Assembly (NCBI RefSeq): GCF_056746865.1
Contig: NZ_CM163382.1
Reading direction: 5' to 3' (one strand)
DNA length: 64,000 nucleotides
How positions within the stretch are numbered: the first letter of the stretch is position 1; each line of letters begins with the position of its first letter. Position numbers and translations under genes: made by a program. The notes beneath the pieces were generated by a model, which was given only the letters and a program-made list of their open reading frames with translations, was not told the DNA's origin and made no database searches. Of the stretch, positions 11,307 through 47,374 are shown piece by piece.

Positions 11307-12361
<1,055 letters not shown>

Positions 12362-27775: not shown

Positions 27776-27879
27776 GTTAAATCTCCAGATAGTCGCAGCA
27801 CCCGTTGCGCCGCATATCTGGTTATTCTATTACCTGAAAAACCACATATGGATAGAAAGGCTGTAAATACGAATAGATA

Positions 27880-27894
27880 TTACCTTTCAGGTAA
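27880..27894. promoter_or_regulatory. operator-like inverted repeat TTACC-TTTCA-GGTAA upstream of the tail fiber gene
   Basis: Perfect 5-bp half-sites, 15-bp site identical to 44822-44836. Confidence 0.5.
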
Positions 27895-27956
27895 TTTGCA
27901 AAACGTGCTGGATAGCAAACAAATTATTTGCTACTGTATAAATATACAGTTATTGC

Positions 27957-28229
27957 ATGGAGAAGATTAAGATGCAGCAGTATCACTATCCACTGGAAGA
28001 CGGATTTACCGAAAGGATTCACACGCCGGGAGGCGTCAGGTCACTGGTGGAGGGATCGCACTTGATGAAATTACTCCGGGATCTCGATAAGGATGGATTT
28101 AATGTCGATGGCCCACTTGCCGAACTGACTGCACTGATTAACTACGTCACCAGCTCACAGATGTCTATGCGGGATCTGCAAACACATCTCGACTATTGTG
28201 CCGAACAATTACGAAAACAAACCCGGTAA
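27957..28229 (+). CDS. hypothetical small protein (moron candidate)
   Basis: 90 aa (85 aa from the second ATG at 27972, which has a GGAGAAG Shine-Dalgarno); opposite strand to all neighbouring late genes; followed by a hairpin at 28237-28252. Confidence 0.5.
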   Translation: MEKIKMQQYHYPLEDGFTERIHTPGGVRSLVEGSHLMKLLRDLDKDGFNVDGPLAELTALINYVTSSQMSMRDLQTHLDYCAEQLRKQTR

Positions 28230-28236
28230 ATTTAAA

Positions 28237-28252
28237 GGCCGCAAGAGCGGCC
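28237..28252. terminator. hairpin GGCCGC-aaga-GCGGCC between convergent genes, probably a bidirectional terminator
   Basis: Perfect 6-bp stem, then the GTGACATGTCAC palindrome and a T-run. Confidence 0.5.
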
Positions 28253-28261
28253 TGTGACATG

Positions 28262-28558
28262 TCACGCTCTTTTTCTGAATGATAGCCATTCGAAAAATGA
28301 TGACATTCCACCGCAGACAATAGCAAAGATGATCCCACCAAAGAAGAGAAGGCCAGCCTGCCACCACTCCCACCGCCATACATCCACAGCGCCAACCATA
28401 CCAACAATCGCTCCAACAAATGGAATATAGCTCACGATGAAAGCAATGGGGGCTGCAATTATCCAGTGCAATCCCCACCATGATTCAAGCCCAGCCATAA
28501 TTGCTGCCAACTGAAAAAGACCAACGACGATATAAACAATGAATCCTATAGCTTGCAT
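28262..28558 (-). CDS. small polytopic membrane protein, unknown function
   Basis: 98 aa with 3 hydrophobic helices and several Trp residues. Confidence 0.55.
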   Translation of the reverse strand: MQAIGFIVYIVVGLFQLAAIMAGLESWWGLHWIIAAPIAFIVSYIPFVGAIVGMVGAVDVWRWEWWQAGLLFFGGIIFAIVCGGMSSFFEWLSFRKRA

Positions 28559-28570
28559 GTAGTCACCTAT

Positions 28571-28744
28571 TTACCCAGTAAAAATCAGAGGCCTCCCCTC
28601 AATAAGGCTTGCAACAAGAACTATTCCCTGCACAACAAAGATGAACCAGCAAATAGCTTGAGTCTGAGGGTTAAGAAAATATTTGTAGCGGTCAATAAAT
28701 AACAACCCACCAGAAATTATCACACTCAAAATAATTAAAAACAC
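28571..28744 (-). CDS. small membrane protein, unknown function (below the ORF-track size cutoff)
   Basis: 57 aa from a GTG start preceded by AAGGAAG; two hydrophobic helices; lies between the 824-aa virion protein and the 98-aa membrane protein. Confidence 0.35.
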   Translation of the reverse strand: MFLIILSVIISGGLLFIDRYKYFLNPQTQAICWFIFVVQGIVLVASLIEGRPLIFTG

Positions 28745-28753
28745 AACACTTCC

Positions 28754-31228
28754 TTATTGCGGAGTGACATCCTGAGGTCGCCACCAGTATGTCTGGTTAA
28801 ACTCTTTCTTCGAACGTTGCTCCATTTTACGCAAATAGCCTGGTGAAAAATACTCCTGCATCTGGTTAAAGATCATATGATCGAGAGCCGCCTTTAAGTA
28901 CCAGAGATTCGCACCTGGCATCAAACCTTTCCCCAGCTTCACCAGATCACCACCAGTCTGCTCACTCTTCCCTTCCACAGCATTTAACGGTATGCCCTGA
29001 GCAATCTTCACTACGTCATCAACCAGACCAGCTACCGGGCCAAGCATCGACGCCAGCGCGCCGCTTCCGTACCTAGTGTGATCTGACAATAAAAAGTCAC
29101 CGTAAAGGCCAAGACCACCACCTTTCAGTAGAGCACCAAGCCAAAATTTAGCAGCATCTTCTCCTGTCATCTCGCGAGGATTACGACCAGACGCAAGGTC
29201 GTTAAGTTGCTGCGACAAAGCGCCAAGAATGGTCGTACTGGCAATAAACGTCGCAATATATGCCGCACGCCCACCAGCAGACGGCATACCCATAGCGCGT
29301 GACCAGTGACGCATAACCACCGAGATAGGGAACGATTTAAACAGGAAAACACTTCTCGTTAATTCACCTTTCCATGTTCCACGCTGAATACCAGAACCGG
29401 TTATCAGTTGCTCACGTGCTCCCGGTGTAATAACAGCCATATCAACTTCTTCAGTTACGGCACCGAGCAGTTTACGCATTGCCTCAAATTTCACGCGTTC
29501 AGGCTCACCAAGATGTTTAACTGCTGAATCAGGGATACGCATAATGCTTTCCGGTGTCAGCATCGTATTATTGCCGTTCCCCCAGTCCTCCTGTTGCGCC
29601 AGCTTCCATACGCTCCAGTCTGTGTCAGTAATCCCTTTGCTTTTCAGGATACGAAAATCAGAATCATCGAGGCTACGAAGGTCTGGTGTCCGTGACACTA
29701 CTTCTCCCAGGCTTCCCATCATGGTTACGCCATAGGCGCGCTTGTGCGCATCTGACCATGCTGTAAGCCCACTGGCACGCATTACCGCCGTTGCAGCCCA
29801 ACGAGACACAGACGGCCCCATATTATCCATCGCCCAGCGGTTAACGCTGCCAAGTAGAGATTCCATCGCCAGACCAGCGCGGCGCGCCCGCGCAAGTTCT
29901 GTACGGTTCGTTGGGTCCATAGCTTCAAGCTGGTTGCGGAATAACTGGTTCATTGGAAGGTTGGTAACCTTCGCAGACAGATACATGGTTCCAAGATCAG
30001 AGAACGATGACAGCAACGCGGATCCGAGTCTGCTGGCAACCAGCCAGTTGCGGATATTGTCAGACCATCGCGCGATGTGCGGATTCGCTACAGGCTGTGT
30101 CTTTCCGGAAATAAAATTGTACAGATTCTCTGTGTTGTTCGCCAGCCGCTCGACTTTACCGGTTTTACTCGGGTTAGCTGTTGCCGTTTCTGCCTTCACC
30201 TGATCAAGAAGAGAGCGGAAAACATGATCGGGGTTTGGGCCATATGTTTCCACCAGTGCAATATCTTTACTGATACCTTCAAGGTGACCGACCATGATTT
30301 CCCATAGAGAGCGATCGCCATAAAGTTGCTGATATTGCAGATAGGAATCTGCATCTTTGAAATGTATCTGTCGTGATGCATTACCACGGTTAGCACGTGC
30401 GCCGGAAATTCGCATTCCGGTATCAGTAAGCTTATTCAGCCCACCAGTAGCGATCGTGTTATAAGCCTCTCCAAGAAATGCAGACAACTCGGCATCGTTC
30501 ATCAGTTGTCCATCGGCTCGGGTATAATATTTGCGATCCAGCTTACCTATAACATCGCTAACCCATTTATCTTTTGATACCGCCCCAACCTTTTCCATAG
30601 AATGATGTTGAGGGATCCCCCAGTTTTCGAGATAGCCAATGTCCCCACCAGCATCATTAAACCGGCGGCGCAGCAGCTCTGTAACTTCTCTCCACGCCTT
30701 AGCACCTTTTCTTGCTTTAGCATTGCCAGTATTTTGCCCCCGCATTTCATATACCAGGTCACGTACGCCCGCTTCATCTTCAAACAGACCAAAAAAGCGA
30801 GGATCAACTGCTTCGAATGCCTCCTGCAATTGACTCAATGCATAATCACGGGTGGCTTTTGTTCTGGATTCAACAGAGAGGAAATTCGATTTACCGTCTG
30901 CATTAAAAGCAATAGTACGGTTAAGAGCGCCAAGTTTCCCATCAGCCCCTTGATAGCTATTGATAAATTTATCCAATCTCTGACGTGCGGCTATAGTGAG
31001 GGCCACACGACGTTTCTTTAATGCCGCTTCTCGCTGTAATTCTTCAGATGCCAATTGTGCTGCACGATACAACCGTTCTGATTCGGAAAGTTGTCGCCAC
31101 GACATCGGGTCATCACGAGCAATGGAGCGCATATTTCGATAAATGCGGTCTTCAATGTTCTGTATTTCTCGCGCCGTTAACGTGCGCTGCGCCGCCTGCT
31201 GGACCGCTTGTATACATTCCTGTCTCAT
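28754..31228 (-). CDS. large virion-associated protein (internal virion / ejection protein candidate)
   Basis: 824 aa; placement within the structural gene block. Confidence 0.5.
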   Translation of the reverse strand: MRQECIQAVQQAAQRTLTAREIQNIEDRIYRNMRSIARDDPMSWRQLSESERLYRAAQLASEELQREAALKKRRVALTIAARQRLDKFINSYQGADGKLGALNRTIAFNADGKSNFLSVESRTKATRDYALSQLQEAFEAVDPRFFGLFEDEAGVRDLVYEMRGQNTGNAKARKGAKAWREVTELLRRRFNDAGGDIGYLENWGIPQHHSMEKVGAVSKDKWVSDVIGKLDRKYYTRADGQLMNDAELSAFLGEAYNTIATGGLNKLTDTGMRISGARANRGNASRQIHFKDADSYLQYQQLYGDRSLWEIMVGHLEGISKDIALVETYGPNPDHVFRSLLDQVKAETATANPSKTGKVERLANNTENLYNFISGKTQPVANPHIARWSDNIRNWLVASRLGSALLSSFSDLGTMYLSAKVTNLPMNQLFRNQLEAMDPTNRTELARARRAGLAMESLLGSVNRWAMDNMGPSVSRWAATAVMRASGLTAWSDAHKRAYGVTMMGSLGEVVSRTPDLRSLDDSDFRILKSKGITDTDWSVWKLAQQEDWGNGNNTMLTPESIMRIPDSAVKHLGEPERVKFEAMRKLLGAVTEEVDMAVITPGAREQLITGSGIQRGTWKGELTRSVFLFKSFPISVVMRHWSRAMGMPSAGGRAAYIATFIASTTILGALSQQLNDLASGRNPREMTGEDAAKFWLGALLKGGGLGLYGDFLLSDHTRYGSGALASMLGPVAGLVDDVVKIAQGIPLNAVEGKSEQTGGDLVKLGKGLMPGANLWYLKAALDHMIFNQMQEYFSPGYLRKMEQRSKKEFNQTYWWRPQDVTPQ

Positions 31229-31233
31229 TTAAT

Positions 31234-33036
31234 TTAACCTCTCAAGAAACACGCCACAGCAACATCAAACAGGCTGGAATCCTGTATTGCCTGCTCACTT
31301 TCCCTGTTCGCTTCATCCAGTACTTCACGCGCACTGCGCGATTGTGGATTACCATCATCATCCAGCACGGTGATTATCATGTCAGGTGATTCAAGCAGCG
31401 AGTCTTCAGCTATGCGCAGATCAATATCTCCTGCCTGATCTGACATCATTTTTTGTTCTGCCTGTTGCAATATTTTATCAGGCTCAAAAGGAGCTACTTC
31501 GTCTGGCGTCCTGACCTCTGCTGTTTTATAGAATGAAACAGCCTGAGCATTAAGTTCACTTTCTGCCTGCTGTCTCCGAGCCAGTTCTGCTCGAGCTTCA
31601 AAAAACTGACCGCCAGGCTCGTGCGGTGCCAACGCGTTACGGGAAAATTCCAGGCGTTCTTGTGCCTGCCGGATTCGTTGATCAATATCGCGAAGTCTGG
31701 CCTGTTTATCTGATCGAGCACGAGACAAAGCTTTACCGCTACCGGTTGGCTCTTCTGCAAGAATTTGTGCACGCTGTTCAGTGAGATTTTCAATAATTCG
31801 TTGGCTATTAGCGATTTCAGACTGGTAAACCTGTCTATCTCCACGCGGCAAAAGCTGCGCGGCCTGTTCTTCAAGCAACCGATTTTCTATAGCGCGCGCC
31901 GTTACTCCATCATCTACAGATGACAGAGCCTCATTAACTGCCTGAGACAGCAGACTCTTGCGCCCAGGAATTTCACTGAAAGATGCAGACTCAACAATGC
32001 TGGCAACGTCTACAGGTCTCCCCTGGCTAACATCAGACATAGCTTTTCGCAGAGCCTGAATGTGAGAATTGCGCGAAAGCACGTTGATCGGCACGCCGGG
32101 CGCAATATCAATTTCAGCATGATGAGCGGCATTCGCCGCCAGTGCAGCATCGATATCAACTGGTGAAAAATTTGGTGCGTTTGTAGACTCGCCGCGAGAG
32201 TTAATAAATCTGCCGACACCACCAAACGCCACCCCAAGAACAGCATCAATAGCAATTGCCTGTCGATCCAACACATCATACTGGTTAGCCATTTCGCTAT
32301 AGCCACCATCACGAAGTGTTTTTGCAGTAAGCCCACGCTGTGCCATACCGAACGCAATATTTGTACCTGCGGCATAGGCAATATCTGGCGTTGCACGTAC
32401 TGCTGTTGCTGCGGCGCGTCGCACTGAACTCTCACCCGTCCGCGCAAGCTGAGCCGCCACACCTTCCGCCAGCGCACCACCAGCACGTAACCCGAGGCTC
32501 ATAGGGATCAGCGTTCCGGCACCAGCAGTAATGCCCTGCACTAATCCCGCTTCCTGCGCCGTCCTGAAATCAACACCCTGTGCTGTCAGCCGTTCAAACT
32601 CAGAAAAACCCTGTAGCGAAGTTACCGCCGCTGCACCTCCGACAGGACCACCGAGCGTTGTACCGACAACAGCCTGCCCGCCCATATCGAACAACCCATA
32701 AAGAACCTGCCCGGCGGTTCCAGTTGTCGCGGCATCAGGCGTCAGCCGCTTAACCTGCTGCTCTGCTAGTTTTCTCTGCTCGGCAATGTATGAAACTGAA
32801 GTATCATTGAGCGAGGTGTTTTCGTTAACAAACTGAGCAATCGGGGATACGATTTTATCCATCCCTGCCCATAGCAACTGATCTGGCTTTGCCACCAGCC
32901 CGGAGTACAAACCAGACAATGCCGCTCCTACAGCATTGTCGAAAAAACCAACATCGCTGTTAAAGCCAGCTGGATTTGATGCTGCTTCGTCAAGCTGCTG
33001 ATTCTGGTTTACTGGATTAAGGCCAAAGTAACTCAT
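31234..33036 (-). CDS. virion-associated protein (internal core / ejection protein candidate)
   Basis: 600 aa; Ala/Gly-rich central region; translationally coupled to its neighbours. Confidence 0.45.
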   Translation of the reverse strand: MSYFGLNPVNQNQQLDEAASNPAGFNSDVGFFDNAVGAALSGLYSGLVAKPDQLLWAGMDKIVSPIAQFVNENTSLNDTSVSYIAEQRKLAEQQVKRLTPDAATTGTAGQVLYGLFDMGGQAVVGTTLGGPVGGAAAVTSLQGFSEFERLTAQGVDFRTAQEAGLVQGITAGAGTLIPMSLGLRAGGALAEGVAAQLARTGESSVRRAAATAVRATPDIAYAAGTNIAFGMAQRGLTAKTLRDGGYSEMANQYDVLDRQAIAIDAVLGVAFGGVGRFINSRGESTNAPNFSPVDIDAALAANAAHHAEIDIAPGVPINVLSRNSHIQALRKAMSDVSQGRPVDVASIVESASFSEIPGRKSLLSQAVNEALSSVDDGVTARAIENRLLEEQAAQLLPRGDRQVYQSEIANSQRIIENLTEQRAQILAEEPTGSGKALSRARSDKQARLRDIDQRIRQAQERLEFSRNALAPHEPGGQFFEARAELARRQQAESELNAQAVSFYKTAEVRTPDEVAPFEPDKILQQAEQKMMSDQAGDIDLRIAEDSLLESPDMIITVLDDDGNPQSRSAREVLDEANRESEQAIQDSSLFDVAVACFLRG

Positions 33037-35546
33037 TGCGGAATATCTCCGGAGAATCTCTGACGCTTCTGTGTCAGATTAAGAACAACGGGAGAACCAT
33101 CATCTTTCAGCAGATAACCAGTACCAAGTTTCACCAGGTACTGACTATCGCCGTAACTTTGCAAACCATACTGACCAGGCGGTGTTTTTATCCCAGAGCC
33201 GACAACTTGTTCATTCCAAGCCTGATTAACCTGCTTATCGAATTGCTCTGCAGACATTCCCCACGGCAAAAGGACATTCCCCATTCCGTTATAGTCATGC
33301 ACGCCACCTGTAGCTACGTTAACAGCCTGTTTCCAGACATCATTGTCAATTTCGCCTGATACCACGCCTTTTTTCGCCATCACACCAGCGTAATAATCCT
33401 TTGCGATCTCGTATGCCATTGATGCCCCCTGAGCGTCACCAGCAAATGCATCCTTCACCATGTCAGAAAACTCAAGGCGAAGATCAGCATCTTTAGGCAT
33501 CGGAATACCTTTCGCATCATCAGTACCTTTACGAGCCGCCGCGCCAGCAAGAATTGTCTGCGCAGCGGTTTCAGGAGACACGGAAACATCCGGATTAAAC
33601 CAGTTTTTTTCTGCCAAAATACCACCTGGCTTATCCATCAGTATCCCGGCAACGGCAGCAGATGGAGCGTTGGCACTGATCTGCTGTAGTGCTGACATAT
33701 ACACCTGCCCACCACCAGTGCTCTGCCTGATGGTATCTAGATATGCTGCCTGTTGGGAAACGGGCGCATCACGAAAGAAAACACCGATCTGATTGGCCTC
33801 GTCTTTGGAAAAGAACGTCAGTGGAGTGCCATATGACTTAGCAAGGTCACTGACCTGAGCAGCACGCAAGGCAACGCTCTGTCCAAAGTTATCCTTATTG
33901 CTCATGTCGATAGGCTTTGTCTGTCCGGCGGCAAGAGAGAACTGTACAGGATCAGCCTGTCGCTGCTTTATCACCTGACTTGCAGCCGACACAACGTTGT
34001 CATAAAGAGCGGCTCGTGCCGCATAACCCTCCCCTGTCTCACCAGTATCCGGGCGTAATTGCTCAACATATGCTGTAATGCTGCTTGTCGGCATGTTGCG
34101 GAAAGAGCCTATATACTGTCCGGCGATTTGCGTATTTCTGAACTCGGTATATCGCAGGTTTCCTTCTCTTACTCCATAAGCTGCAATAAAATCAGCCTCA
34201 CCAGGTGGGTTAGGAAATTCAACGCCACGCATATACGCAGCTGTCGCATCGCGAACCTGGCTGTCAATCATCGTTTTATATTCAGCCTGCTGCTGCCGAC
34301 GCAGTTGATCCGCCTGTCGCATAAAACTTGCCTGCGCCTCAGGAGATGCCGCATCGAATGCTGCATTACCGGTATAGCGTTTGGTGTTGGTTGGAATTGT
34401 TGATAAACCAAGTGCTGCACTGACACCAGCAGTTAACTGCTGATCACTGTATGGCTGGCTACCGTTCTCATGATGGATAATGGCTGCACAAAGCGCCTTC
34501 AGGGTATCAGGATTAGATGCATCGAGAGGCTCATCAGCAGAAACGCCAAGTTGTTCGCACACTGCTTTGATATACGACATAGTGTCATTTTTATCAGCAG
34601 GCGGTGCCCAGCGATTAATTATCTCGCTGACGGTATCAATACCCTGCCTCTGATACGACATCAGGTTCCGCCCTAATGCACGAATCCCGTGTTCAGGTGT
34701 TTCGAATTTAGCAAATCGACCATCATCACCGGTCTGGCCTACCCACGGATTAGTTTTGCTGTATTCGAGATTTCCTGGGTTATTGTTGCGTATGCCACGG
34801 GCACGCTCGGAAGAGTCACTATCTGCTACAGCACGGCGAGCTCCAGCAGCAGTATCACTTAACTCGCCATTACTTTGGATGAATGCGGTCGCATTGTTTG
34901 CCGACCACTGGGACAATGCAGCATCAGCAACCTTCTCTTTAAACTCGATTTTCTTGGCCTGGATTTGCTCGTTGCTCCAGCCATGTGCAACACCGTACTC
35001 CTCAATTTGCTGGAAAGTTTGTTTGTTAGCCAATACGTATGCGGCGTTGTCGCCATACAATGCTGCGGCATTTTTACCATTGTTCAGCAGTGTCGCCTGA
35101 AACTGGCCTTCTTCGTAGGCATTAATTTGCCCTATCTCGTGTCGCCCGGCCTGCGTAGTGAACTGAATGCGCTGCTGCTGCGCCTGCTGCATGAAAGCAT
35201 TACGAGCCTGTTCATCCGGCAGCGACATAGCCAGTTGTTCGACCTGAGCATCAAACTGCTGCGTATACTCATGGCCTTTTCCAATAGCATTTTTCCCTTT
35301 CAGGTTAAGCAATCCTGTTTCAGGATTATTCAGCAGATCGCTGCTTATCTGACTGAGGTTAAGAGATGCCTCCTGAGCCAGAGCGATATTGGCACGCTGT
35401 TTTGCCTGCCCCAAAACATCAATTGCCTCTGTCCCTGCCCGAACAAAAGCATCACCAATACCTTGCTGAGAAAACGTCTGCAAGCCTGCTGACTGAACTC
35501 CACGACTCTCAACCTGACGTCCGGATACTGTTGGTACGACTGGCAT
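33033..35546 (-). CDS. large internal virion protein with a possible peptidoglycan-hydrolase-like segment
   Basis: About 837 aa from the ATG at 35546, which overlaps the upstream gene stop; segment GIRNNNPGNLEYS...FAKFETPEHGIRALGRNL resembles a phage virion-associated cell-wall hydrolase motif (recalled, not searched). Confidence 0.45.
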   Translation of the reverse strand: MPVVPTVSGRQVESRGVQSAGLQTFSQQGIGDAFVRAGTEAIDVLGQAKQRANIALAQEASLNLSQISSDLLNNPETGLLNLKGKNAIGKGHEYTQQFDAQVEQLAMSLPDEQARNAFMQQAQQQRIQFTTQAGRHEIGQINAYEEGQFQATLLNNGKNAAALYGDNAAYVLANKQTFQQIEEYGVAHGWSNEQIQAKKIEFKEKVADAALSQWSANNATAFIQSNGELSDTAAGARRAVADSDSSERARGIRNNNPGNLEYSKTNPWVGQTGDDGRFAKFETPEHGIRALGRNLMSYQRQGIDTVSEIINRWAPPADKNDTMSYIKAVCEQLGVSADEPLDASNPDTLKALCAAIIHHENGSQPYSDQQLTAGVSAALGLSTIPTNTKRYTGNAAFDAASPEAQASFMRQADQLRRQQQAEYKTMIDSQVRDATAAYMRGVEFPNPPGEADFIAAYGVREGNLRYTEFRNTQIAGQYIGSFRNMPTSSITAYVEQLRPDTGETGEGYAARAALYDNVVSAASQVIKQRQADPVQFSLAAGQTKPIDMSNKDNFGQSVALRAAQVSDLAKSYGTPLTFFSKDEANQIGVFFRDAPVSQQAAYLDTIRQSTGGGQVYMSALQQISANAPSAAVAGILMDKPGGILAEKNWFNPDVSVSPETAAQTILAGAAARKGTDDAKGIPMPKDADLRLEFSDMVKDAFAGDAQGASMAYEIAKDYYAGVMAKKGVVSGEIDNDVWKQAVNVATGGVHDYNGMGNVLLPWGMSAEQFDKQVNQAWNEQVVGSGIKTPPGQYGLQSYGDSQYLVKLGTGYLLKDDGSPVVLNLTQKRQRFSGDIPQ

Positions 35547-36091
35547 TATAATCCTCCGGGTAATCTGGTTCCTGCTGCTGCCCCGATTGGCGCAGGAGTG
35601 CTTTGAGTAAACGGACTCCACGTCCCACCAAACATCTGGTACGCACCGTATGCCTTCAGAGGCGCAGTGAGCAATGTTGTTGCTGCTCCCACATTCCCCT
35701 GTTTACGGGCTGAACTGGCTTCTGCTTTATAGTTGGCAGCCTGAACCTGATAACCGTAAGCCTCGCGTTGCGCGTTATTCACCGTCGTCAGCGAATCAAG
35801 AGCGCCAAACTGGGCAGTGTCGCCAAATATATCCAGCGCGTTACCTGTAGATAAATCAGCGCCGGTAGCCCCCATTGTCGCCGCCTGTGTACCAAGCCGC
35901 TGTCGGGTCTCTCTGCGTCGTTGCTCAGCTTCAGCGTTACCTCTGTTTATTGCATCATTTGCCTGAGATGTGGCTATATCTGCGTTCGCTTCTGCAACCT
36001 TCGAGGCATACTTTCCCTGTTGGTACTGGGTGTATGCCTGAATGCCACTCATGGCGAGCATTGCGCCACCAGCAATAACCGGATCGCACAT
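35546..36091 (-). CDS. internal virion protein (T7 gp14-like size and composition)
   Basis: 181 aa, Ala/Gln-rich. Confidence 0.4.
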   Translation of the reverse strand: MCDPVIAGGAMLAMSGIQAYTQYQQGKYASKVAEANADIATSQANDAINRGNAEAEQRRRETRQRLGTQAATMGATGADLSTGNALDIFGDTAQFGALDSLTTVNNAQREAYGYQVQAANYKAEASSARKQGNVGAATTLLTAPLKAYGAYQMFGGTWSPFTQSTPAPIGAAAGTRLPGGL

Positions 36092-36555
36092 TATTTTCTC
36101 TCCATGTGAAATCTGTGGAAATTAAGACCAAGAGCACCATAAGGCGCGGCTTCTTCAAGCCTGAATCCAAGCCAGTGCAGCCATGCTTTGGCAACATGGT
36201 TTCGCTCGTCGACGTAGTTTTCCAGGCGCGGATAAACTGCCAGCATCTGCTGCAATACAGGGCGGCAGTGGCGCAGAAATGTCTTCTGATATTTTTCAAT
36301 ACGGCTGGTTCCTACCAGCCAGGGCGTACCATTGCCACCGATCATTGACGCCGGAGATACACCAAACATGGTTACCAGTTCTCCGTTCGCGAACCCTGAC
36401 CAGGCCATAGTCGCAGTGCGAAGACCAACGCGCAGCGCATCTTCGGTAGTCATCAGCGATACCGCATACAGTTCGTCAATATCAGCCTGACGAACATCCG
36501 GCAAAATCATCTGAAGATGCTCTTCGGTAGCGGGAATAATTTGAACATCGATCAT
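36091..36555 (-). CDS. hypothetical virion-module protein
   Basis: 154 aa; start overlaps the upstream stop. Confidence 0.4.
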   Translation of the reverse strand: MIDVQIIPATEEHLQMILPDVRQADIDELYAVSLMTTEDALRVGLRTATMAWSGFANGELVTMFGVSPASMIGGNGTPWLVGTSRIEKYQKTFLRHCRPVLQQMLAVYPRLENYVDERNHVAKAWLHWLGFRLEEAAPYGALGLNFHRFHMERK

Positions 36556-39026
36556 CAGAATCCCCCAACAGTAAGGCGAGGAATAACGGCAAGAACAGAC
36601 AGCGGCAACGGGTCAAGCTGACGGATTTTTACACGCCCGTTTTTGCCCCAGTTACTGTCCAGTTTCACTTCTACTTTTCCGGTAGCATCATCAACAGGAT
36701 CATCGTAGAACTCGAATTCACGCTGTGGATATTCGTACCATTTACCGCCGGGCGTAGTCGCCCAGATGCCGCGACTGGCATTCACAACCAGAGTAACGGA
36801 CGGGATCACCTGTTTTTTGTCCAGCAGCGTTTCCTGTCCGTTAATGTTGATATCCAGTGTTTCGAATTCAGCAGTTATTGGCAGGCCGATGTGCACAACA
36901 GCCCCCGGTGATTCCAGCGTGACGGCACCTCCGGAAACCACTTTTTGTGGTTCCACGTTCGCATCAGAGAGGATGTTTACGGTCTGGCCTTCAAGATGAG
37001 ACAAGCCGCCAAATGTCCGGCGCGCCATCTGCCAGTTCGTGGTGGCCACATTCCTGAGGGATGGCGGGACGTTCCTGTTAGCACGAACCACTACTGCGGT
37101 ATTGCTGGTTACAGAAATAATGTCGCAACGTAATTCTTTTGACACTTCATAGCCAGTATCAGGACCAGCTCCGGTATAAGGGAACTGTAGTTGCGCACCA
37201 ACATCACTACTGGTGAAGTACGCACCACCAGAAACACTGATTGTATATTCCGCGCGGTAATCCCATTCGCCAGAACCACCAGTGATGGTCATCGTTCTGT
37301 CAGACGTGTTTCTTCCATCATAGCTAAGGCCAGAATCAACAAAGAAAGCATCTTCATCGCTGGTAAATAAACGGCTGGACAGTCGCTCGATGTATCTCAC
37401 TGTTTGCCCGTTAACGGTTCGGTTAACGACGAAATACACCGCATCTTCATTTCCTTCGCTGATACTGCATGTGCTTTCATATTTTCCGGTACTGGACTGT
37501 GGTGCCCATGCAAAAACCTGCTGATCACGCAAATAGGTCATCACCAGTAATTTACCGTCATCACGAATGCAGAAGGCGCTGGAGTAAGGGACAATAGAGA
37601 AGCACCAGTCAACAATGCTGTGCTTCTGAAAAAGATGATTGGCAAGGATGGTCAGGTCGTTCCCCTGATAGCCGTCAACATCGAATGAGTAGGCCAGATC
37701 ACGGACAACACTGCCTTTCTCCTGGACGAACAGAGCAATATTCGCCACGGCAATTGGTGGGACGTTGCTTGAGCCATTTGATCCCTGAGAGCTGAATGCA
37801 AATGATGATGGGGTTAACACTTTATTCTGGTCGCCGGTGATGACGTACTCACCTCCGGAAGTCAGTGCCACCAGCGAACCGACATCAATCAGGTGGCGGA
37901 TCTCATTAACCTGACGCCCGGCATAGGTGTAGATAATTCTGTCGTCATCCTGCGTAGGATTGCTTTTGCCAAAATCCTTATAATCCCCGGTACGGCTGGC
38001 CCAGATAGTCTGAGGGAACGCTGTCGATGCGGCGAAGTAAAGACGTTGTTGATAATAAACAACCGTGCCAGGATAACCGTTAACACTGTTCCAGGCATAT
38101 TTAGCCCATTTATAGCTGGCATTATCCTCGCCAACGACCTGCGAAGGGATATAGGAAATCACCTCAGCAGTTGCAGTAGTTCCATTTGCAGCAGTGATAC
38201 GGGCAATGCCAAAACCACTGTGCAGATATTCCCACTCAATGCCAGTATCATCATCACCGGATCCGCCCCAGCCATCCCATGATGTGCCTTCTGTATGCGA
38301 AGGGCGCAAAGTGCCTGTTTTGCCTGCTGTAACGGCGCGATAGTAGTTACTGTCTGCACGGCGAATATCGCCAATCGACGTACTCTTACTGGTTTCCCAT
38401 ACCGGCACTGAATCCACTGCAGGCTGTTCCAGATAGAACAATTTGCCTACCTGCTCCGCGCCAAAAATAGAGGCGCTTGCCGTTAACGTAATTGTCCCGG
38501 TGCTGGCGCTGGCATAAACCGTCACTGACTCGTCAATATTGATATCTTCAAATGGCCCGTTCTTCGTTACCACATCAACCAGTTGCCAGTTGTCATGCGC
38601 ATAGCGGCGCAACTCTTTCGGTGGGTATGCCGGGTGAACCAGCGTAAGCACGTCGGCGCTTTGCGTGAATTTAATTCGGAACAAATCGGCTTCAGTATAT
38701 GGCGTGGCAATTTCATAAATAACATTGCTGCTGTTCAGCACCAACGCACCATCTTTGATAACGCGCATGTACTGGTGTCCGAACTCCAGAGCATAGGTCT
38801 GAACCGTCGAGAACTGGAACGGGATAAGACGGCATTTCCGATTTGGGTATTTGGCGGCACCAACAAAACGCGTACCAGGTCGATTCTCAACGCCGCCATA
38901 CTGCCGCACGATAAAGTTATCGCACTTGCGCAATGCCACCTGGTACTTCGCCATGTCGATACGTCCGTACAACGACGGTCCAATCTCACCACCAGCAAAG
39001 CTGGGCTGGATCCAACTGATAGCCAT
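36555..39026 (-). CDS. tail tubular protein B-like (nozzle) protein
   Basis: 823 aa directly downstream of a 201-aa tubular/adaptor-like gene, matching the gp11/gp12 arrangement of T7-like tails. Confidence 0.5.
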   Translation of the reverse strand: MAISWIQPSFAGGEIGPSLYGRIDMAKYQVALRKCDNFIVRQYGGVENRPGTRFVGAAKYPNRKCRLIPFQFSTVQTYALEFGHQYMRVIKDGALVLNSSNVIYEIATPYTEADLFRIKFTQSADVLTLVHPAYPPKELRRYAHDNWQLVDVVTKNGPFEDINIDESVTVYASASTGTITLTASASIFGAEQVGKLFYLEQPAVDSVPVWETSKSTSIGDIRRADSNYYRAVTAGKTGTLRPSHTEGTSWDGWGGSGDDDTGIEWEYLHSGFGIARITAANGTTATAEVISYIPSQVVGEDNASYKWAKYAWNSVNGYPGTVVYYQQRLYFAASTAFPQTIWASRTGDYKDFGKSNPTQDDDRIIYTYAGRQVNEIRHLIDVGSLVALTSGGEYVITGDQNKVLTPSSFAFSSQGSNGSSNVPPIAVANIALFVQEKGSVVRDLAYSFDVDGYQGNDLTILANHLFQKHSIVDWCFSIVPYSSAFCIRDDGKLLVMTYLRDQQVFAWAPQSSTGKYESTCSISEGNEDAVYFVVNRTVNGQTVRYIERLSSRLFTSDEDAFFVDSGLSYDGRNTSDRTMTITGGSGEWDYRAEYTISVSGGAYFTSSDVGAQLQFPYTGAGPDTGYEVSKELRCDIISVTSNTAVVVRANRNVPPSLRNVATTNWQMARRTFGGLSHLEGQTVNILSDANVEPQKVVSGGAVTLESPGAVVHIGLPITAEFETLDININGQETLLDKKQVIPSVTLVVNASRGIWATTPGGKWYEYPQREFEFYDDPVDDATGKVEVKLDSNWGKNGRVKIRQLDPLPLSVLAVIPRLTVGGF

Positions 39027-42542: not shown

Positions 42543-42835
42543 TCCTGTTCACTGGCCTCTTTGGCCATCTTCAAATACTGTTCAGGGCAATGCGCCATAA
42601 CGCGCTGAAACAGTTCCAGCGCCAGATTGCGTTGCCCCTCATTAAATGCCATTGCCATAGCGTCCATCGGCGAGATAGCGGAAAACACACGACCTTTCTC
42701 CAGCACCGACCAGACAACGCGACGCCCCTGTTCACTGCTCATGACAAAGCGAATGTCATCAATTTCACGCTGTGCCATGTCACGTTGCTTACGGGCGTTT
42801 TCTTCTTTCAGTTGATCATCTTCGTAATCTGTCAT
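42539..42835 (-). CDS. hypothetical head-module protein
   Basis: 98 aa overlapping both neighbours. Confidence 0.4.
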   Translation of the reverse strand: MTDYEDDQLKEENARKQRDMAQREIDDIRFVMSSEQGRRVVWSVLEKGRVFSAISPMDAMAMAFNEGQRNLALELFQRVMAHCPEQYLKMAKEASEQE

Positions 42836-44511
42836 TGTGATTGCCCACCCTGACCACTAACTGCATTCGCCATAGCTGACAAAACACTCGGATCAGAAGT
42901 TTTAGCTTCGCTTAGCGTCTTGGCACCCTGTGCCGCCGCCATCCCCATCGCCATCATTTGTTGCTGCTGTTGCTGCTGTGCCCGTTGCTGGCGAGTCTGC
43001 TCAACCTGTTCCTGCGGAACAATGACGGTTGGAGACACTCCGGACATATCAGCGAATGCATCGATCGCCTGATCAACGTTGAGTTTGTCGAGAGCTTCTG
43101 GTTTCGCTTGCGCAAGTTGACCAATGAAGTTGACCGTGGATGCCAGACTGGACAGGCCGATAGACTTCTGCGCCTGAGCCATGACGGAAATGTATTCGAC
43201 CTTCAGGGGCATACCTTCCATCGCGTCAGGCGGTGGCGGCAGCATGTTTTTACGCACCATCATCGAGAAAGCGCGGTCAATGAGAGGATTAAGACATTCG
43301 TCGTTCAGACGCTCCAGAACCGGCCCCAACATCAGAAGTTTTTCTTCTTTCATTTCGATCACCGCTTCAACAGGCATCGAGCGGGTATTGATGTTCTGCA
43401 ACATCATGAACAGATCGACAAAGTAGGCGCTGTTAATGATTTGCCGAGTGTCCTGAATGTCTGCTACCAGATCTGCTGTACTGGGGTTAACCAGATAAGC
43501 AGGCCTGAAACCATCCTGACCAGTAATCTGATCGATATACGTGATGTCGCCAGGAAGAAGGGAGGCGCGCTGATTCTTGAGGGAAGTCGGAGCAACCATC
43601 GGCGGATTGGTGGCTTTATCAATCAACTGCGACTTGCGCTTCTGGAGAAGCTGCAATGCCTTAACAGGTCCAAGCGCCAGCATACCCGGGCATGATGATC
43701 CATAAACATCTTCGCCGTTAACTTCCCAGCGCGGAGCCATAATTGGAAACTCATCGAATCCGGACTCACGCAACAACTTGTCGTTATCGCCACCAACCTC
43801 GTAATAAACCGATTTGAATGGCTTGTTCTTGCTATCCAGCTTCGATGTATCGCGGTCAATGTTCGGGTAAACCGAATGCATCACTTCAATCCACTTCTCG
43901 TAGGTTCCGCTTTCCCACATGCTTTTTACGGATTCGCTGACGTTATTTAGCCCGAACTCCTGAACAAGCTGACGAACAGTCATAGAGAACTTGCGAAAAC
44001 AGGTGTCCACACTGCCACGAGGTGAGTTAGCCAGGTAGTAACTGCCTATCGGGAATGGCATTGTGCGAATGATGTCCTCGTCATCCTCCAGCACTGCCAT
44101 TGCACCAGTGCTGTATGTGCCGAGGCTTCCGTATAACTGCGGCAGCGACTGATAGAGATTCGACTTATTGAACATATCGTTCATGCGGTTCTGCACCGCC
44201 TCAAGCCACAACTTAACAGGGCCATAATCCATCATTTCAGGATCTGGCGTAGCCAGGCGAAACCACGGACGCGCGGGGCTTGTGATGCCTGACATCATGC
44301 CGCTGGCGAGAGTGCGCGCCGCCATAGTCCCGGTCGAATCAATAATGCGTGTATTGCGTCGATCGTTACGGTTAACCTCAGAAGTCAGAAAGCGGGAACC
44401 ACGCGGGTTGATGTAATCACTCAACTCGCGCCAGTGCGGCTCGAACGACTGACGCTCGCTTTCAAGTTGTGCGAACTGTTTGTTCAATCGCTCTTTAGTT
44501 GTTTCCGCCAT
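42832..44511 (-). CDS. portal (head-to-tail connector) protein, T7 gp8-like
   Basis: 559 aa; Gln/Ala/Met-rich C-terminal tail (QQRAQQQQQQQMMAMGMAAAQG) reminiscent of T7-type portals. Confidence 0.65.
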   Translation of the reverse strand: MAETTKERLNKQFAQLESERQSFEPHWRELSDYINPRGSRFLTSEVNRNDRRNTRIIDSTGTMAARTLASGMMSGITSPARPWFRLATPDPEMMDYGPVKLWLEAVQNRMNDMFNKSNLYQSLPQLYGSLGTYSTGAMAVLEDDEDIIRTMPFPIGSYYLANSPRGSVDTCFRKFSMTVRQLVQEFGLNNVSESVKSMWESGTYEKWIEVMHSVYPNIDRDTSKLDSKNKPFKSVYYEVGGDNDKLLRESGFDEFPIMAPRWEVNGEDVYGSSCPGMLALGPVKALQLLQKRKSQLIDKATNPPMVAPTSLKNQRASLLPGDITYIDQITGQDGFRPAYLVNPSTADLVADIQDTRQIINSAYFVDLFMMLQNINTRSMPVEAVIEMKEEKLLMLGPVLERLNDECLNPLIDRAFSMMVRKNMLPPPPDAMEGMPLKVEYISVMAQAQKSIGLSSLASTVNFIGQLAQAKPEALDKLNVDQAIDAFADMSGVSPTVIVPQEQVEQTRQQRAQQQQQQQMMAMGMAAAQGAKTLSEAKTSDPSVLSAMANAVSGQGGQSQ

Positions 44512-44525: not shown

Positions 44526-44732
44526 TTACTGACCAAGCAGCGTTTTACCGCTGGTATTAGCGGTTGATGTGTCGCCCTGAGAACCGGTAAGCAGCGTAGA
44601 ACTACGACCAGCAGCAGCGCGACGGCGACGAGTTTCTTCGTCGCGGGCATCAACAACGGCGGCATCCTGCTCCTGTGGTGCTGCCTGAACTTCTGGTGTT
44701 GCAGGCACTGATGGTGAGCTACCCATGCACAT
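44526..44732 (-). CDS. small hydrophilic protein upstream of the portal gene (frame choice uncertain)
   Basis: 68 aa; an alternative overlapping frame (44513-44752) also exists. Confidence 0.25.
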   Translation of the reverse strand: MCMGSSPSVPATPEVQAAPQEQDAAVVDARDEETRRRRAAAGRSSTLLTGSQGDTSTANTSGKTLLGQ

Positions 44733-44821
44733 ATCAATGACTCCGTACGCAATTAAATTATTACCAATTTAACCACATATGATTTATTTATCGTAGGTAG
44801 TTGACATTTAACGCACAAATT

Positions 44822-44836
44822 ATTACCTTTCAGGTA
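44822..44836. promoter_or_regulatory. operator-like inverted repeat TTACC-TTTCA-GGTAA upstream of the portal/head gene block
   Basis: Identical to the site at 27880; preceded by the shared TTACC-N5-AACCACATATG module. Confidence 0.5.
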
Positions 44837-45159
44837 ACCAAAGAGTTCATTCCGGTTACTAACCTGACTGGCTTGTCGTTAAATTGAACAGGTGGAGTGA
44901 GCTTTTATTTTGAGCAGTACGGCGTATGGCACATGCGCCGATAGCGGTCTGGATACGTTTAAGGGGCACCCTCCCTTGCTCGGGCAAACGAACCAGGTAG
45001 CCGGAATGTGCAAGTCGAGCGGTTTTATTCCGCGCACGGGGATTCACCATCCCGGCGATTCGGTGTGACGCCTCGGAAGAGACGAGGGTACAACGATGAG
45101 AGCATTTATGGAGCCGCGACAAAGTGTGGCGCCTTAACAGGCTAAGTGCTCTCAGCGTT

Positions 45160-45236
45160 GTGGCATTAGCTCAGCTGGACAGAGCAACCGCCTTCTAAGC
45201 GGTTGGTCGCAGGTTCGAATCCTGCATGCCACGCCA
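45160..45236 (+). tRNA. tRNA-Arg, anticodon UCU (reads AGA), prophage-encoded
   Basis: Manual cloverleaf: acceptor GTGGCAT/ATGCCAC, D-stem GCTC/GAGC, anticodon stem ACCGC/GCGGT with loop CTTCTAA, T-arm GCAGG-TTCGAAT-CCTGC, discriminator G and CCA end. Confidence 0.85.
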
Positions 45237-45279
45237 GAATCACGCCTAAGGACCGTGATGCCAGAAGTTCCATGGGCTT

Positions 45280-45321
45280 GGCGGTGATGGTTTCCCTTGA
45301 AGGACTATCACCGCCCTTTTT
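45280..45321 (+). terminator. rho-independent terminator downstream of the tRNA
   Basis: GGCGGTGAT...ATCACCGCC stem followed by CTTTTT. Confidence 0.55.
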
Positions 45322-45399
45322 ACAGCAGGACGCCATTGCGATGGCTTCATGCTGTAAACCAGTACAGCCACGGAAGGCATAACTCATTGCTTCCAGTTC

Positions 45400-45423
45400 G
45401 CCCGGTTCGCCGGGCATTTTTTT
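45400..45423 (+). terminator. rho-independent terminator
   Basis: GCCCGG-ttc-GCCGGGC followed by ATTTTTTT. Confidence 0.6.
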
Positions 45424-45431: not shown

Positions 45432-45808
45432 ATGATGAACGACCAGCAAATCGAAAAAGAAATCGTTGAGAAAGGTAAAACGGCACCTCGTGTAACTCCT
45501 GAGAAAATTGAAGGTCTCATTTGCAGTGAGCATTTTTTACTGCTGCGCAGGGGGATCATCAGGCTAAAGAAGATGACCTTATTTATAATCCAGAGCCTTA
45601 TGTCGAAGCCACCCCTGATGCTCTGCACCTTCTCACTTTCTGCGTCCTGGTGCTGCGCAACGACTTCACCGTCACCGGAGAGAGCGCCTGTGCAAGCCCG
45701 GAAAACTTTGATGCAGAAATTGGTCGGAAGATTGCCCGGCAGAATGCTGTAAACAAAATCTGGATGCTTGAAGGTTACTTGCTGAAGCAGAAGTTAAGCG
45801 GGCAATAA
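45432..45808 (+). pseudogene. conserved small phage protein gene interrupted by a frameshift at a T6 homopolymer
   Basis: N-terminal 35 codons in one frame (MMNDQQIEKEIVEKGKTAPRVTPEKIEGLICSEHF) continue after the T6 run at 45533-45538 in another frame (...TFCVLVLRNDFTVTGESACASPENFDAEIGRKIARQNAVNKIWMLEGYLLKQKLSGQ, stop at 45806-45808). Confidence 0.5.
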
Positions 45809-45898
45809 CACCGTGACATGTCACAAACAGCCAGCCTATGAGCTGGCTTTGTTTTATCCTCACCAGAGGATATCAACGACATTATCCCCACCAGCGGA

Positions 45899-47374
45899 TT
45901 AAGCATAGGGATCGTAATCTGTAATGGCCTTGCCTTGCTGGTTCTGCTGACCTGGAATTCGCAGACGCTTCGACACAGGGAAAGCAAACGTCAGCAATAG
46001 CGCATCGCCTTTACCCGGCGAACGCCCAAGACGCTCTTTGATATCTTCCTTCGGTTCGATAACGATTTTACCGTCCACGCGAACTTTGTACTCTGCCGCC
46101 GACAGGTCGTCCGCTGTTTCCTGGTCATCCAGCATGCCGCCCAGCCTCAGCCATGTCTTACATGAGTTGAACATCTCCCCACGCTTGTTAAGCATCTGCG
46201 GGTCAGTGGACGCACCGCCGAACGGAACAAGTTGCCATGTACGCCCCCAGCCATCACCGATTGACTTCAAACCGGTTCCGTAACCGAAGTCGATGAACAC
46301 TGCGTCAGCCTGGTACTGGTCTTCAAAGTCAGCGATACGCTTCGCCATAATCAGATCGTCAGTGGTCTTGTTGCCAGTCCACAGCACCTTACTGTGCAGC
46401 CCCTGCCGCAGGTATATCACAGCGTCATCAACGCCGGAGTATGCCGGGTCAACGCCGATTATCACCGGAGCATGTGCAACCTGCGCAGCGGTTACCACCC
46501 GTTTCATTGCCTCGTCAGTAAGACCGGTAGGGATAAACTGCAATTCAGATGCATCAGGGAATATGCCACGCACACGGATTTTAACGAAGTCGCTGTCTTC
46601 CCCGTAGTCATCAACCCATTTCTGCAACTGCTGTTTGTTAGTGCCTTCCACCGTCCGGCTGTCAATCTGCGCAGTTTTCCAGCGGTGTTTATATTTGCGG
46701 AAACATTCGCGAAAACGCCCGGTGTTACGTGTAGGGTTTCCGAACGCCACCCAAATAATCTCAGTGTCTTCGTCCGTAAGCGCACCCTCGGCAACTTCCC
46801 ACACCAGATCCGCAATGTTCGACGCTTCATCAAACACCACGATGATGCGTTTGCGCTCGTTGTGTAGTCCGGCGAATGCCTCAGTGTTGTGCTCAGACCA
46901 GGGTATTGCGTCAGCCCGCCACCGCTTGTCGTGCCCAGGGTCATTGCTGTACATCGCGGTAGCGGTACAGGTAAACCAGTCTTTCGTGATAGCAAGGTTC
47001 GACCACTTGATAATTTCCGGCCAGGTCTTCGTTCGTAGCTGGTTGTCGGTGTTGGCGGTCACCACGACCTTACAATCCTCGCAAGTGGACATGCCCCAGT
47101 TGATGAGCATTGAGATGAATGCGGATTTACCAATACCGTGACCAGAAGCACGTGCCAGCATAAGCGGCTGATAACGCGTCTCTGGATTCTGCAGGTGATC
47201 ACGTATCTCTCGGAACGCATCGGCCTGCCACTGACGTGGACCGGTAGCATGTGCCAGTTCAGTCCCCTCTTCCCCCCAAGGGAACGCATAGAGGGCATAG
47301 CCAAGCGGATCGTGAGTGAACCCTGCAATATCTTCGATTAACTGCTCTTCAGGAGATAACGCTGCATCTGTCAC
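45899..47374 (-). CDS. terminase large subunit
   Basis: 491 aa; Walker A-like motif (ASGHGIGKS), ATPase and nuclease acidic motifs; overlaps the small-subunit gene. Confidence 0.8.
   Translation of the reverse strand: MTDAALSPEEQLIEDIAGFTHDPLGYALYAFPWGEEGTELAHATGPRQWQADAFREIRDHLQNPETRYQPLMLARASGHGIGKSAFISMLINWGMSTCEDCKVVVTANTDNQLRTKTWPEIIKWSNLAITKDWFTCTATAMYSNDPGHDKRWRADAIPWSEHNTEAFAGLHNERKRIIVVFDEASNIADLVWEVAEGALTDEDTEIIWVAFGNPTRNTGRFRECFRKYKHRWKTAQIDSRTVEGTNKQQLQKWVDDYGEDSDFVKIRVRGIFPDASELQFIPTGLTDEAMKRVVTAAQVAHAPVIIGVDPAYSGVDDAVIYLRQGLHSKVLWTGNKTTDDLIMAKRIADFEDQYQADAVFIDFGYGTGLKSIGDGWGRTWQLVPFGGASTDPQMLNKRGEMFNSCKTWLRLGGMLDDQETADDLSAAEYKVRVDGKIVIEPKEDIKERLGRSPGKGDALLLTFAFPVSKRLRIPGQQNQQGKAITDYDPYA

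Follow-up and report, generated by a model that had tools for sequence, protein, structure and literature searches.

The put RNA renders the RNA polymerase of Escherichia coli resistant to terminators by way of the β′ zinc-binding domain. It works alone on the E. coli polymerase, from just downstream of PL and without phage proteins (PMC9378689), and N-less lambdoid phages with early-left operons of the yfdPQR type have been suggested to use a put-like RNA, although none was identified (PMC12315714). Lambda nutL with the N protein and the boxB-boxA-boxC signals of rrn leaders are likewise promoter-proximal RNA signals that load termination-resistant polymerase, and in the rrn leaders the cargo is untranslated and includes tRNAs. 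Other described phage RNAs lie beside tRNA genes, such as the two stable RNAs (C and D) that the tRNA cluster of phage T4 yields. GOLLD and ROOL, found near tRNA islands, have no assigned function (10.1101/2024.12.08.627333). In Stx phages, the terminated PR′ leader can itself be a trans-acting regulatory RNA (PMC7547250).

Here we describe an element in a 64-kb stretch of DNA (the window), of which positions 44920-45161 on the plus strand are, as judged from comparative sequence analysis, one copy of a conserved structured RNA family with six helices and a pseudoknot. Helices P1-P5 and the pseudoknot form a core of about 170 nt, and a closing hairpin, P6, brings the whole to about 240 nt. The lambdoid copies resemble put of HK022 and HK639 in lying just 3′ of an early-left promoter, in N-less phages and ahead of terminators; the window's own copy is promoter-proximal like put, but in a Uetakevirus. 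Both put and the element are strongly conserved cis-encoded RNAs, presumably aimed at a host machine. However, put comprises two stems and a triplex in about 70 nt, whereas the core of the element is 2.5 times that size, with five helices and a pseudoknot, and is followed by the sixth hairpin. HK022 has two put sites and HK639 one annotated site, while the element is single-copy and, unlike put, is often fused to a tRNA and occurs also in P1-like, epsilon15-like and Lastavirus phages. By eye, the base of put stem I equals the lowest five pairs of P1 (CGGCG/CGUCG), which is a lead at most.

Like lambda nutL and the rrn leaders, the element is promoter-proximal, and we propose a read-through role for it below; where it is linked to a tRNA it resembles the rrn leader in its cargo, and the 3′ strand of P6 is often boxA-like (UGCUCUUUC versus UGCUCUUUA). 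Lambda nut requires the N protein, whereas the carriers of the element have no N-like gene in the regions examined. With GOLLD, ROOL and the T4 RNAs C and D it has in common that it is a structured phage RNA adjoining tRNA genes, with which it is probably co-transcribed. It is nevertheless much shorter than GOLLD and ROOL (500-800 nt) and, unlike them, is restricted to phages of Enterobacterales and to a fixed place after early promoters. The PR′ leader that ends at tR′ (lambda 6S and StxS) has the same architecture of promoter, short structured leader, terminator and genes; that system depends on the Q protein and a DNA qut site at a late promoter, whereas the element stands at an early promoter, and the sequences are unrelated.

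A tRNA-Arg gene and a predicted non-coding transcript

The neighbouring genes are those of a phiV10/epsilon15-like podovirus prophage of the genus Uetakevirus. ARAGORN finds a single tRNA in the 64-kb window, a tRNA-Arg with anticodon TCT at 45160-45236 on the plus strand (anticodon at position 35 in a 7-nt loop), which scores 71.7 bits against the Rfam tRNA model RF00005 (gathering score 29). Its 3′ CCA is encoded in the DNA, the gene ending in GCCA (discriminator plus CCA), and it is a known, ordinary tRNA. It lies between the minus-strand portal gene (42832-44511), which is accompanied by a minus-strand gene of 68 codons (44526-44732), and the minus-strand gene of the large terminase (45899-47374). 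The canonical tRNA-Arg(UCU) placed here by the preliminary description is confirmed. AGA codons amount to about 7 per 1000 in the large virion genes of the prophage (25373-39026) versus about 2 per 1000 in flanking host genes, an approximately fourfold excess in keeping with the common reason for phage-borne copies of this tRNA.

Two intrinsic terminators, each with a T run, follow the tRNA on the plus strand, again in agreement with the earlier account. T1 (45280-45322, called at 45280-45315) consists of a 14-bp stem and CUUUUU, and T2 (45400-45423, called at 45400-45415) of GCCCGG-UUCG-CCGGGC and U7; a weak Rfam match to RyhB at T2 is the terminator only. Between the tRNA and T1, a small inverted repeat, AUCACG...CGUGAU (45239-45259, plus strand), was read from the sequence; it is kept in two homologous loci, L063 and L126, and lies outside the minimum-energy fold. 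The ribosome-binding site of the next ORF is directly 3′ of T2, and since T2 abuts it, the cargo gene here would be reachable only by read-through. This gene (45432-45808, plus strand) is of the Gp49 family (PHROG 322) and is mosaic in this prophage and apparently frameshifted, with ORFs at 45432-45752 and 45650-45808. A terminator-like site, T3 (45829-45848, plus strand), stands 3′ of the cargo gene, before the convergent terminase gene.

On the 5′ side, a putative sigma-70 promoter of the non-coding unit, TTGACA-N17-TACCTT (44801-44829, plus strand), has a weak −10 and is not called under the stricter rule of the scan tool. Promoter-like sites occur within 130 nt 5′ of the element in 26 of 105 distinct flanks versus 3 of 105 control regions. 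The −10 and the start region are overlapped by an operator-like palindrome, TTACCTTTCAGGTAA (44823-44837), the homologous site of which is a repressor binding site in the epsilon15 annotation. The window holds 8 exact copies of TTACC-N5-GGTAA and 16 with at most one mismatch, for which 1.1 would be expected. These features together predict a non-coding transcript of about 590 nt, which appears to carry, in order, the 5′ hairpin P0, the core, P6, tRNA-Arg, T1 and T2.

Helices of the element and their covariation

The structure was assessed in two alignments. The first (A2), made with MAFFT, contains 42 sequences below 90% identity. Of its cells, a cell being one sequence at one pair, 96.3% are standard pairs, compared with 27-46% when the partners are slid by 1-3 columns, and 15 of the 30 pairs show compensatory changes. 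In a model-based alignment of 67 sequences that includes bacterial genomes (A4), the corresponding values are 96.6% and 28-45%, with compensatory changes in 17 of 30 pairs, those of the pseudoknot among them; none of 500 shuffles attains the observed values. Such percentages, here and for the single helices below, are inflated by the derivation of the structure from the same sequences, which could not, however, have created the variety of pair types. The preliminary description, which had proposed looking for covariation across homologues, listed a structured non-coding RNA among its options for this region, and covariation supports that option in a family wider than it supposed, extending to P1, lambdoid and epsilon15-like phages. 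Invariant U-G pairs, which on the other strand would be A-C mismatches, indicate that the plus strand is the functional one, the same as that of the tRNA. We built a covariance model (R1) of 183 positions and 26 pairs.

P0 is a hairpin of the same type as P6 (44841-44906, plus strand; fold −22.9 kcal/mol, z = −2.0). The paired letters of the homologous hairpin differ in epsilon15, L063 and L126, and its epsilon15 counterpart is annotated as an 'RNaseIII' site on the other strand. The core, read on the plus strand throughout, opens with the P1 hairpin, CGGCGUAUG-GCA-CAUGCGCCG (44920-28 with 44932-40), whose 9 pairs are 97.9% paired, 3 of them with compensatory changes; the lower pairs covary, and the top and loop (GGCACAUG) are invariant. 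P2 (44945-48 with 45000-03, and 44949-52 with 44993-96) encloses a variable domain (44953-44992) and covaries as CUG/CAG versus CCG/CGG; it also has an invariant U-G wobble. The invariant 18-mer GUAGCCGGAAUGUGCAAG (44997-45014) supplies with its first 7 nt the bulge and 3′ strand of P2, and its remainder, 45004-45014, is unpaired. AUGUGC within it is complementary to GCACAU atop P1, and a tertiary or alternative pairing between the two is possible. The 18-mer was invariant already in the BLAST-retrieved homologues at 70-83% identity; later sequence sets were fetched with the 18-mer itself, so that its invariance there is circular.

P3 (45017-45037) is a hairpin of variable sequence, in whose place homologues have a hairpin of different sequence. 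The P4 hairpin (45039-42 with 45050-53), with a 7-nt loop YUCACCA, is 97.2% paired and has compensatory changes in 3 of its 4 pairs. Its loop residues CACC (45045-48) pair with GGUG (45062-65) in the pseudoknot, where 99.6% of cells are paired and 3 of the 4 pairs show compensatory changes; its variants include AACC/GGUU and UGGUC/GACCA. The P5 hairpin CCUCG-GAAGAGA-CGAGG (45071-75 with 45083-87) has a conserved purine loop, is 98.1% paired and shows compensatory changes in all 5 pairs. Two of the three short hairpins picked out by eye in the preliminary description, GGGAT..ATCCC and CCTCG-gaagaga-CGAGG, thus correspond to P4 and P5 and both have compensatory changes; the third, GGCG...CGCC, is not retained as a pairing, homologues having CACC or AGCC there. 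The same region had been called GC-rich, which holds only moderately (54.3% for 44860-45159 and 57.9% for 44920-45159 versus 49.9% for the whole window).

P6 is a long hairpin, ACAACGAUGAGAGCA ... UGCUCUCAGCGUUGU (45089-45162, plus strand), that runs into the tRNA on its 3′ side: its closing CGUUGUGG doubles as the beginning of the acceptor stem. Its fold in the window has −37.4 kcal/mol (z = −6.0 versus shuffles). A P6 duplex of −15 kcal/mol or lower is found in 78 of 88 distinct homologues, with many compensatory variants, and the mean duplex energy is −25.0 kcal/mol versus −14.3 kcal/mol with shuffled partners. The whole 336-nt stretch has z = −3.7 versus shuffles. Conservation across unrelated phages is a stronger argument than these fold z-scores.

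Distribution among phages and bacterial genomes

BLAST searches with 44860-45159 gave near-identical matches in phiV10-type phages and, from about base 60 of the query onward, matches of 70-83% identity in unrelated phages. The latter include the lambdoid phages mEp460, cdtI, 2H10, Ayreon, mEp390 and Stx2c and Stx2a converting phages, P1, P7, D6, SJ46 and RCS47, further phages of Klebsiella, Enterobacter and Salmonella, and one Lastavirus phage. A match is present in 1839 of 5426 complete E. coli genomes, roughly one in three, and in 1471 it covers at least 80% of the query; 1179 E. coli records match at 80-90% identity, and most of these appear to be of the lambdoid PL-leader kind. The element was also found in 591 plasmids, mostly P1-like. 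In 60 sampled E. coli records, the RefSeq/PGAP features under the match are only the neighbouring tRNA and one hypothetical protein.

The 18-mer, searched as GTAGCCGGAATGTGCAAG, is present in at least 120 IMG/VR viral contigs. A set with one genome per species gave 27 stretches with an exact match, 24 of which also fit the covariance model. All 24 are from Enterobacterales (Citrobacter, Klebsiella, Kosakonia, Phytobacter, Escherichia, Erwinia and others) or from small MAG contigs, which are probably mis-binned. The occurrences in Azonexus and in two MAG contigs, which do not match the model, are attributed to chance, as about nine chance matches are expected in 298 Gb by our own arithmetic. 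The element is absent from CPS-53 of E. coli K-12, and the covariance model finds no match in Salmonella phage ST64B. By eye, the 815-nt early-left leader of ST64B has look-alike modules and is perhaps a distant relative. Each locus has a single copy, as does the window, and none was seen on the cro side within the few kb examined.

Genomic settings

The loci were sorted into 46 distinct contexts, and in all of them the element is co-oriented with whatever comes next. In Uetakeviruses it lies between the portal-side and terminase genes on the strand opposite to both. Next comes tRNA-Arg, a tRNA-like remnant or neither; a small hairpin and two terminators follow, and a variable cargo gene precedes the convergent terminase gene. 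In epsilon15, most of the element is deleted while T2 and the cargo gene are kept. The lambdoid order is a cro-like gene (minus strand), a CI-type repressor gene (plus strand; PHROG 4) and its terminator, OL-type operators repeated from the cro side, a promoter, and the element 8-55 nt past the −10 of this PL-type promoter; the carriers include Stx2 phages. One or two strong terminators follow, and then early-left genes (YfdP/Q/R, as named in the annotation of the records themselves, or ParB-like sets) as far as xis and int. The lambdoid early-left regions examined have no N-like gene, either annotated or found; compared with PHROGs, the flanking proteins belong to CI-type repressor, ParB-like or unknown-function families, and none to N.

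In P1-like phage-plasmids, some 15 nt separate tRNA-Ile2 from the start of the core, and about 100 nt separate the end of the core from ban or, in relatives that retain P6, from a toxin gene. In P1 the core is mid-operon, with no terminator between it and ban. Some copies have little or no cargo: one locus (L035) consists of promoter, element, a tRNA with a CAU anticodon and a terminator, without protein cargo; L063 has no protein cargo after the element; and in the Lastavirus phage SopranoGao the element stands at the genome end, before a 56-aa ORF only. In many copies tRNA-Arg(UCU) starts inside the P6 stem, as it does here, and most copies, the lambdoid ones included, have no detectable adjoining tRNA. 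The tRNA-less copies retain GUGGU and then tRNA-like remnants, which in some relatives lie 3′ of P6.

Outside P1, the element stands close to a promoter, and nearly all contexts have terminator-like hairpins of about −17 to −26 kcal/mol located 240-720 nt downstream, before the first real ORF. By eye, there is no evident sequence similarity between the lambdoid and the Uetakevirus terminators. As the terminators of these lineages are seemingly unrelated in sequence, the arrangement of element then terminator looks selected rather than inherited.

Comparison with known families and coding potential

With permissive filters, applied to 3 kb on both strands, the core within 44860-45159 has no match in Rfam 15 even at E up to 10; the lone match touching 44860-45159 is ZEB2_AS1_2 (44826-44888, minus strand; 13.4 bits, E 8.3). 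At the homologous loci L063 and L126, Rfam likewise gives no family for the element and just tRNA and terminator look-alikes. The preliminary description would have been contradicted by the lack of both an Rfam match and conservation; the match is indeed absent, while conservation is very strong. Its suggestion of a decayed tRNA array fails, as neither ARAGORN nor Rfam at E up to 10 finds a tRNA-like fold in 44860-45159. GOLLD and ROOL were rejected as identities, with no Rfam model match and only the tRNA neighbourhood in common. Among the RNA libraries and genome annotations checked there is no entry for the element, and full-text literature searching found no description of this RNA; the family appears undescribed.

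Membership in the put family was rejected, since R1 finds nothing in the HK022 immunity-region locus (L018) or in the genome of HK639 (L139), where a putL-like RNA is annotated, and the architectures differ. A nut site of the lambda type is also untenable: a canonical boxA after the core occurs in only 1 of 115 contexts (L097), the other 30 matches to the boxA pattern being GCTCTTTTTA, the T-run of the downstream terminator in mEp460-type copies. Nor does the boxA-like 3′ strand of P6 qualify as a nut element, as it is base-paired and covaries with its partner strand. A riboswitch or attenuator with its own expression platform was set aside because 100-500 nt, containing variable inserts (tRNA, extra modules), separate the core from the terminators. 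A protein-coding gene was rejected too, and the earlier finding of no convincing ORF upstream of the tRNA stands: the best frame, anchored on the conserved motif, is open in only 20 of 63 homologous sequences, and these differ in length by amounts that fall in every residue class modulo 3, with no preference for multiples of three.

Possible functions of the element

The place of the element, where early phage transcripts begin, suggests that it governs read-through of terminators, and we tentatively favour its being a cis-acting read-through (antitermination) leader, put-like in function and not related to put. The nascent folded RNA would act in cis on the polymerase that has just made it, as put does in HK022; it would bind the elongation complex by means of the invariant segments, both unpaired and pseudoknotted, and the complex so modified would run past the strong terminators between element and cargo. 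This cargo would be the tRNA and accessory genes here and the whole early-left operon in N-less lambdoid prophages. The promoter, transcription itself, polymerase binding and read-through are the parts of this explanation that we infer. That lambdoid carriers have no N-like gene in the early-left regions examined, yet their whole early-left operon lies behind terminators, supports such a leader. Its core recurs in P1, lambdoid, Uetakevirus and Lastavirus phages, which are otherwise very different, and this makes a partner from the host likelier than a protein of the phage. With somewhat more reserve, the element may represent a second family of self-sufficient polymerase-modifying antiterminator RNAs, structurally unrelated to put, which would explain early-left expression in N-less lambdoids, including Stx2 phages of O157:H7; in P1-like and epsilon15-like phages the same RNA would be a movable cassette that allows read-through into tRNAs and accessory genes. 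Several observations argue against read-through: T3 faces the convergent terminase gene, and a processive antiterminator would tend to override it; L035 and L063 have no protein cargo and SopranoGao only the 56-aa ORF; in P1 the core follows a tRNA in the middle of an operon, and no terminator intervenes between it and ban; T2 and the cargo gene persist in epsilon15 although it has lost most of the element; there is one copy per locus and none was seen on the cro side within the few kb examined; the core is 2.5 times the size of put, which R1 does not match; and the window's promoter has a weak −10 that fails the scan rule.

Some of these observations would suit a stable trans-acting RNA, processed from the early transcript and acting on a conserved host component, the main alternative and in our view a somewhat less likely one. 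It would be released by RNase III in P0 and P6 together with RNase P at the 5′ end of the tRNA, or would simply end at T1 or T2; polymerase, the ribosome, an RNA-binding protein or a defence system are proposed targets, and downstream genes would be expressed via leaky termination only. The tight same-orientation joining to tRNAs (tRNA-Arg in the P6 stem, the CAU tRNA in L035, tRNA-Ile2 in P1-like phages), the long hairpins flanking the core, with the P0 region annotated as an RNase III site in epsilon15, the terminators placed after the element as for an RNA gene, the copies without cargo and the stand-alone copy in the Lastavirus phage are all in its favour, and the stable RNAs of T4 are a precedent. 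GOLLD and ROOL near tRNA islands are another (10.1101/2024.12.08.627333). However, in the lambdoid PL setting, the commonest, a terminated RNA gene would block the early-left operon, including xis and int, with no N-like gene annotated, and the invariant segments are not known to have a convincing partner among host RNA sequences. A read-through leader and a trans-acting RNA would not be mutually exclusive, as the Stx PR′ leader may illustrate (PMC7547250). The tRNAs bear on a further reading, an improbable one in our view, in which the element serves tRNA production as leader or trailer, through folding, processing or protection of an untranslated transcript from Rho and RNases. The CGUUGUGG shared by P6 and the acceptor stem, the GUGGU and tRNA-like remnants kept in tRNA-less copies, and the rare codons AGA and AUA read by the adjoining tRNAs, AGA being enriched in virion genes, are consistent with it; most copies, though, have no detectable neighbouring tRNA, and other phage and host tRNAs manage without such an element. 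The tRNA leader of the preliminary description accordingly fits the position of this copy but not the many homologues with no tRNA following, nor P1, where the element comes after the tRNA. The location of the Uetakevirus unit inside the late gene block on the opposite strand might suggest a plus-strand antisense transcript regulating the late operon mRNA, or a DNA site for recombination, packaging or replication. We consider this highly improbable, as the same core occurs in lambdoid and P1 settings without an opposing operon, its conserved G-U and U-G pairs would become A-C mismatches in the opposite strand, and a double-stranded DNA site would not be expected to show base-pair covariation. 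Least credible of all is a neutral spacer, decayed tRNA array or small protein gene: an 87-codon ORF on the minus strand and hypothetical proteins annotated over the homologous region in some phage records speak for it, but the 70-83% identity across unrelated phages with compensatory base changes, the lack of a tRNA-like fold and the closed frames in most homologues mean that the comparative data already contradict it.

Significance

The element would constitute a large blind spot in very well studied genomes, among them P1, Stx2-converting phages and about a third of complete E. coli genomes, and its carriers include the phiV10-type phages used for O157 typing and detection. Should it prove to be stable and to act in trans, it would represent a new phage RNA directed at the host, the first of the tRNA-linked kind in a tractable model system (E. 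coli/P1). As an antiterminator, it would answer the question raised in the literature of how N-less lambdoids pass early terminators and would amount to a second, independent RNA solution for reprogramming RNA polymerase, of use in synthetic biology and with a bearing on prophage induction and the biology of Shiga-toxin phages.

Structural variation within the element and at its 3′ end

Within the core of the structured RNA, the top of helix P1 (GCACAU, window 44930-44935) and a stretch that is left unpaired (AUGUGC, 45006-45011) are perfect complements, and both are invariant. Judged from the sequence, the two segments could pair as a tertiary contact or as part of an alternative fold.

In one lambdoid lineage (L097, about 7390-7420), a short hairpin stands in place of P6 and a canonical boxA (GCUCUUUAACAA) comes after it; in the other copies, the 3′ strand of P6 only resembles boxA. 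The element-bearing mEp phages belong to a collection that PMC11893012 describes as Nus-dependent. Some lambdoid copies, such as that of mEp390 (L017 1617-1885), have an additional structured module of approximately 190 nt, bearing a further GGAAGAG motif; it separates P5 from a displaced P6 and brings the non-coding leader ahead of the first terminator to approximately 570 nt.

Associated tRNAs, cargo and putative operators

AGA codons are approximately four times more common in the large virion genes of the prophage (window 25373-39026) than in adjacent host genes (867-22393), in line with the phage carrying its own tRNA-Arg(UCU). In two homologous loci, L063 (about 2100-2250, minus strand) and L126 (about 11645-11780, plus strand), the sequence directly 3′ of P6 is tRNA-like, with a GUGGU.../...ACCAC acceptor and a good T arm, and is interrupted internally by 50-60 nt of inserted sequence. 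ARAGORN and Rfam recognize neither of them; each could be a disrupted tRNA or a tRNA bearing an unusual insert. In the P1 ban operon, tRNAs and the element share the transcription unit with an annotated 'dicF-like region' in its early part (L006 269-370), and this operon may therefore contain several non-coding RNAs.

The cargo gene after the terminators encodes a Gp49-family protein (PHROG 322; window 45432-45808), and its 5′ half is mosaic relative to O157 typing phage 9. A frameshift seems to have split it into two ORFs that overlap, which may make the copy in this prophage a pseudogene. Other genes fill this slot in relatives, including one annotated as a DUF2829 protein in a Klebsiella phage.

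The palindrome TTACC-N5-GGTAA, allowing up to one mismatch, occurs 16 times in the window against 1.1 expected. Eight copies are exact (27880, 44823, 47985, 52058, 52120, 54407, 55119 and 55181) and eight carry one mismatch. This set looks like a P1-like repressor-operator system dispersed over the prophage rather than a single immunity region.

Truncated and possible distant relatives

Epsilon15 retains just the first approximately 70 nt of the core (L004 2547-2638, 41 bits); the remainder and the tRNA are gone, but terminator T2 and gene 50 are still present. The 'RNaseIII mRNA processing' feature in the epsilon15 record (L004 2453-2552, minus strand) coincides with P0, the hairpin 5′ of the core.

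The 815-nt non-coding early-left leader of Salmonella phage ST64B (L141 27240-28050, minus strand) is not matched by the covariance model of the element. Inspection by eye finds look-alike modules, namely CCGA-CUGGUCA-UCGG, GUAGCCAGUGCAAG and a P6-like hairpin with the end CGUUGUGGUGAAUGCG, and the leader may be related to the element, distantly or in rearranged form. If it is related, the family would be wider than its definition by the 18-mer, the invariant core segment used to retrieve further homologues.
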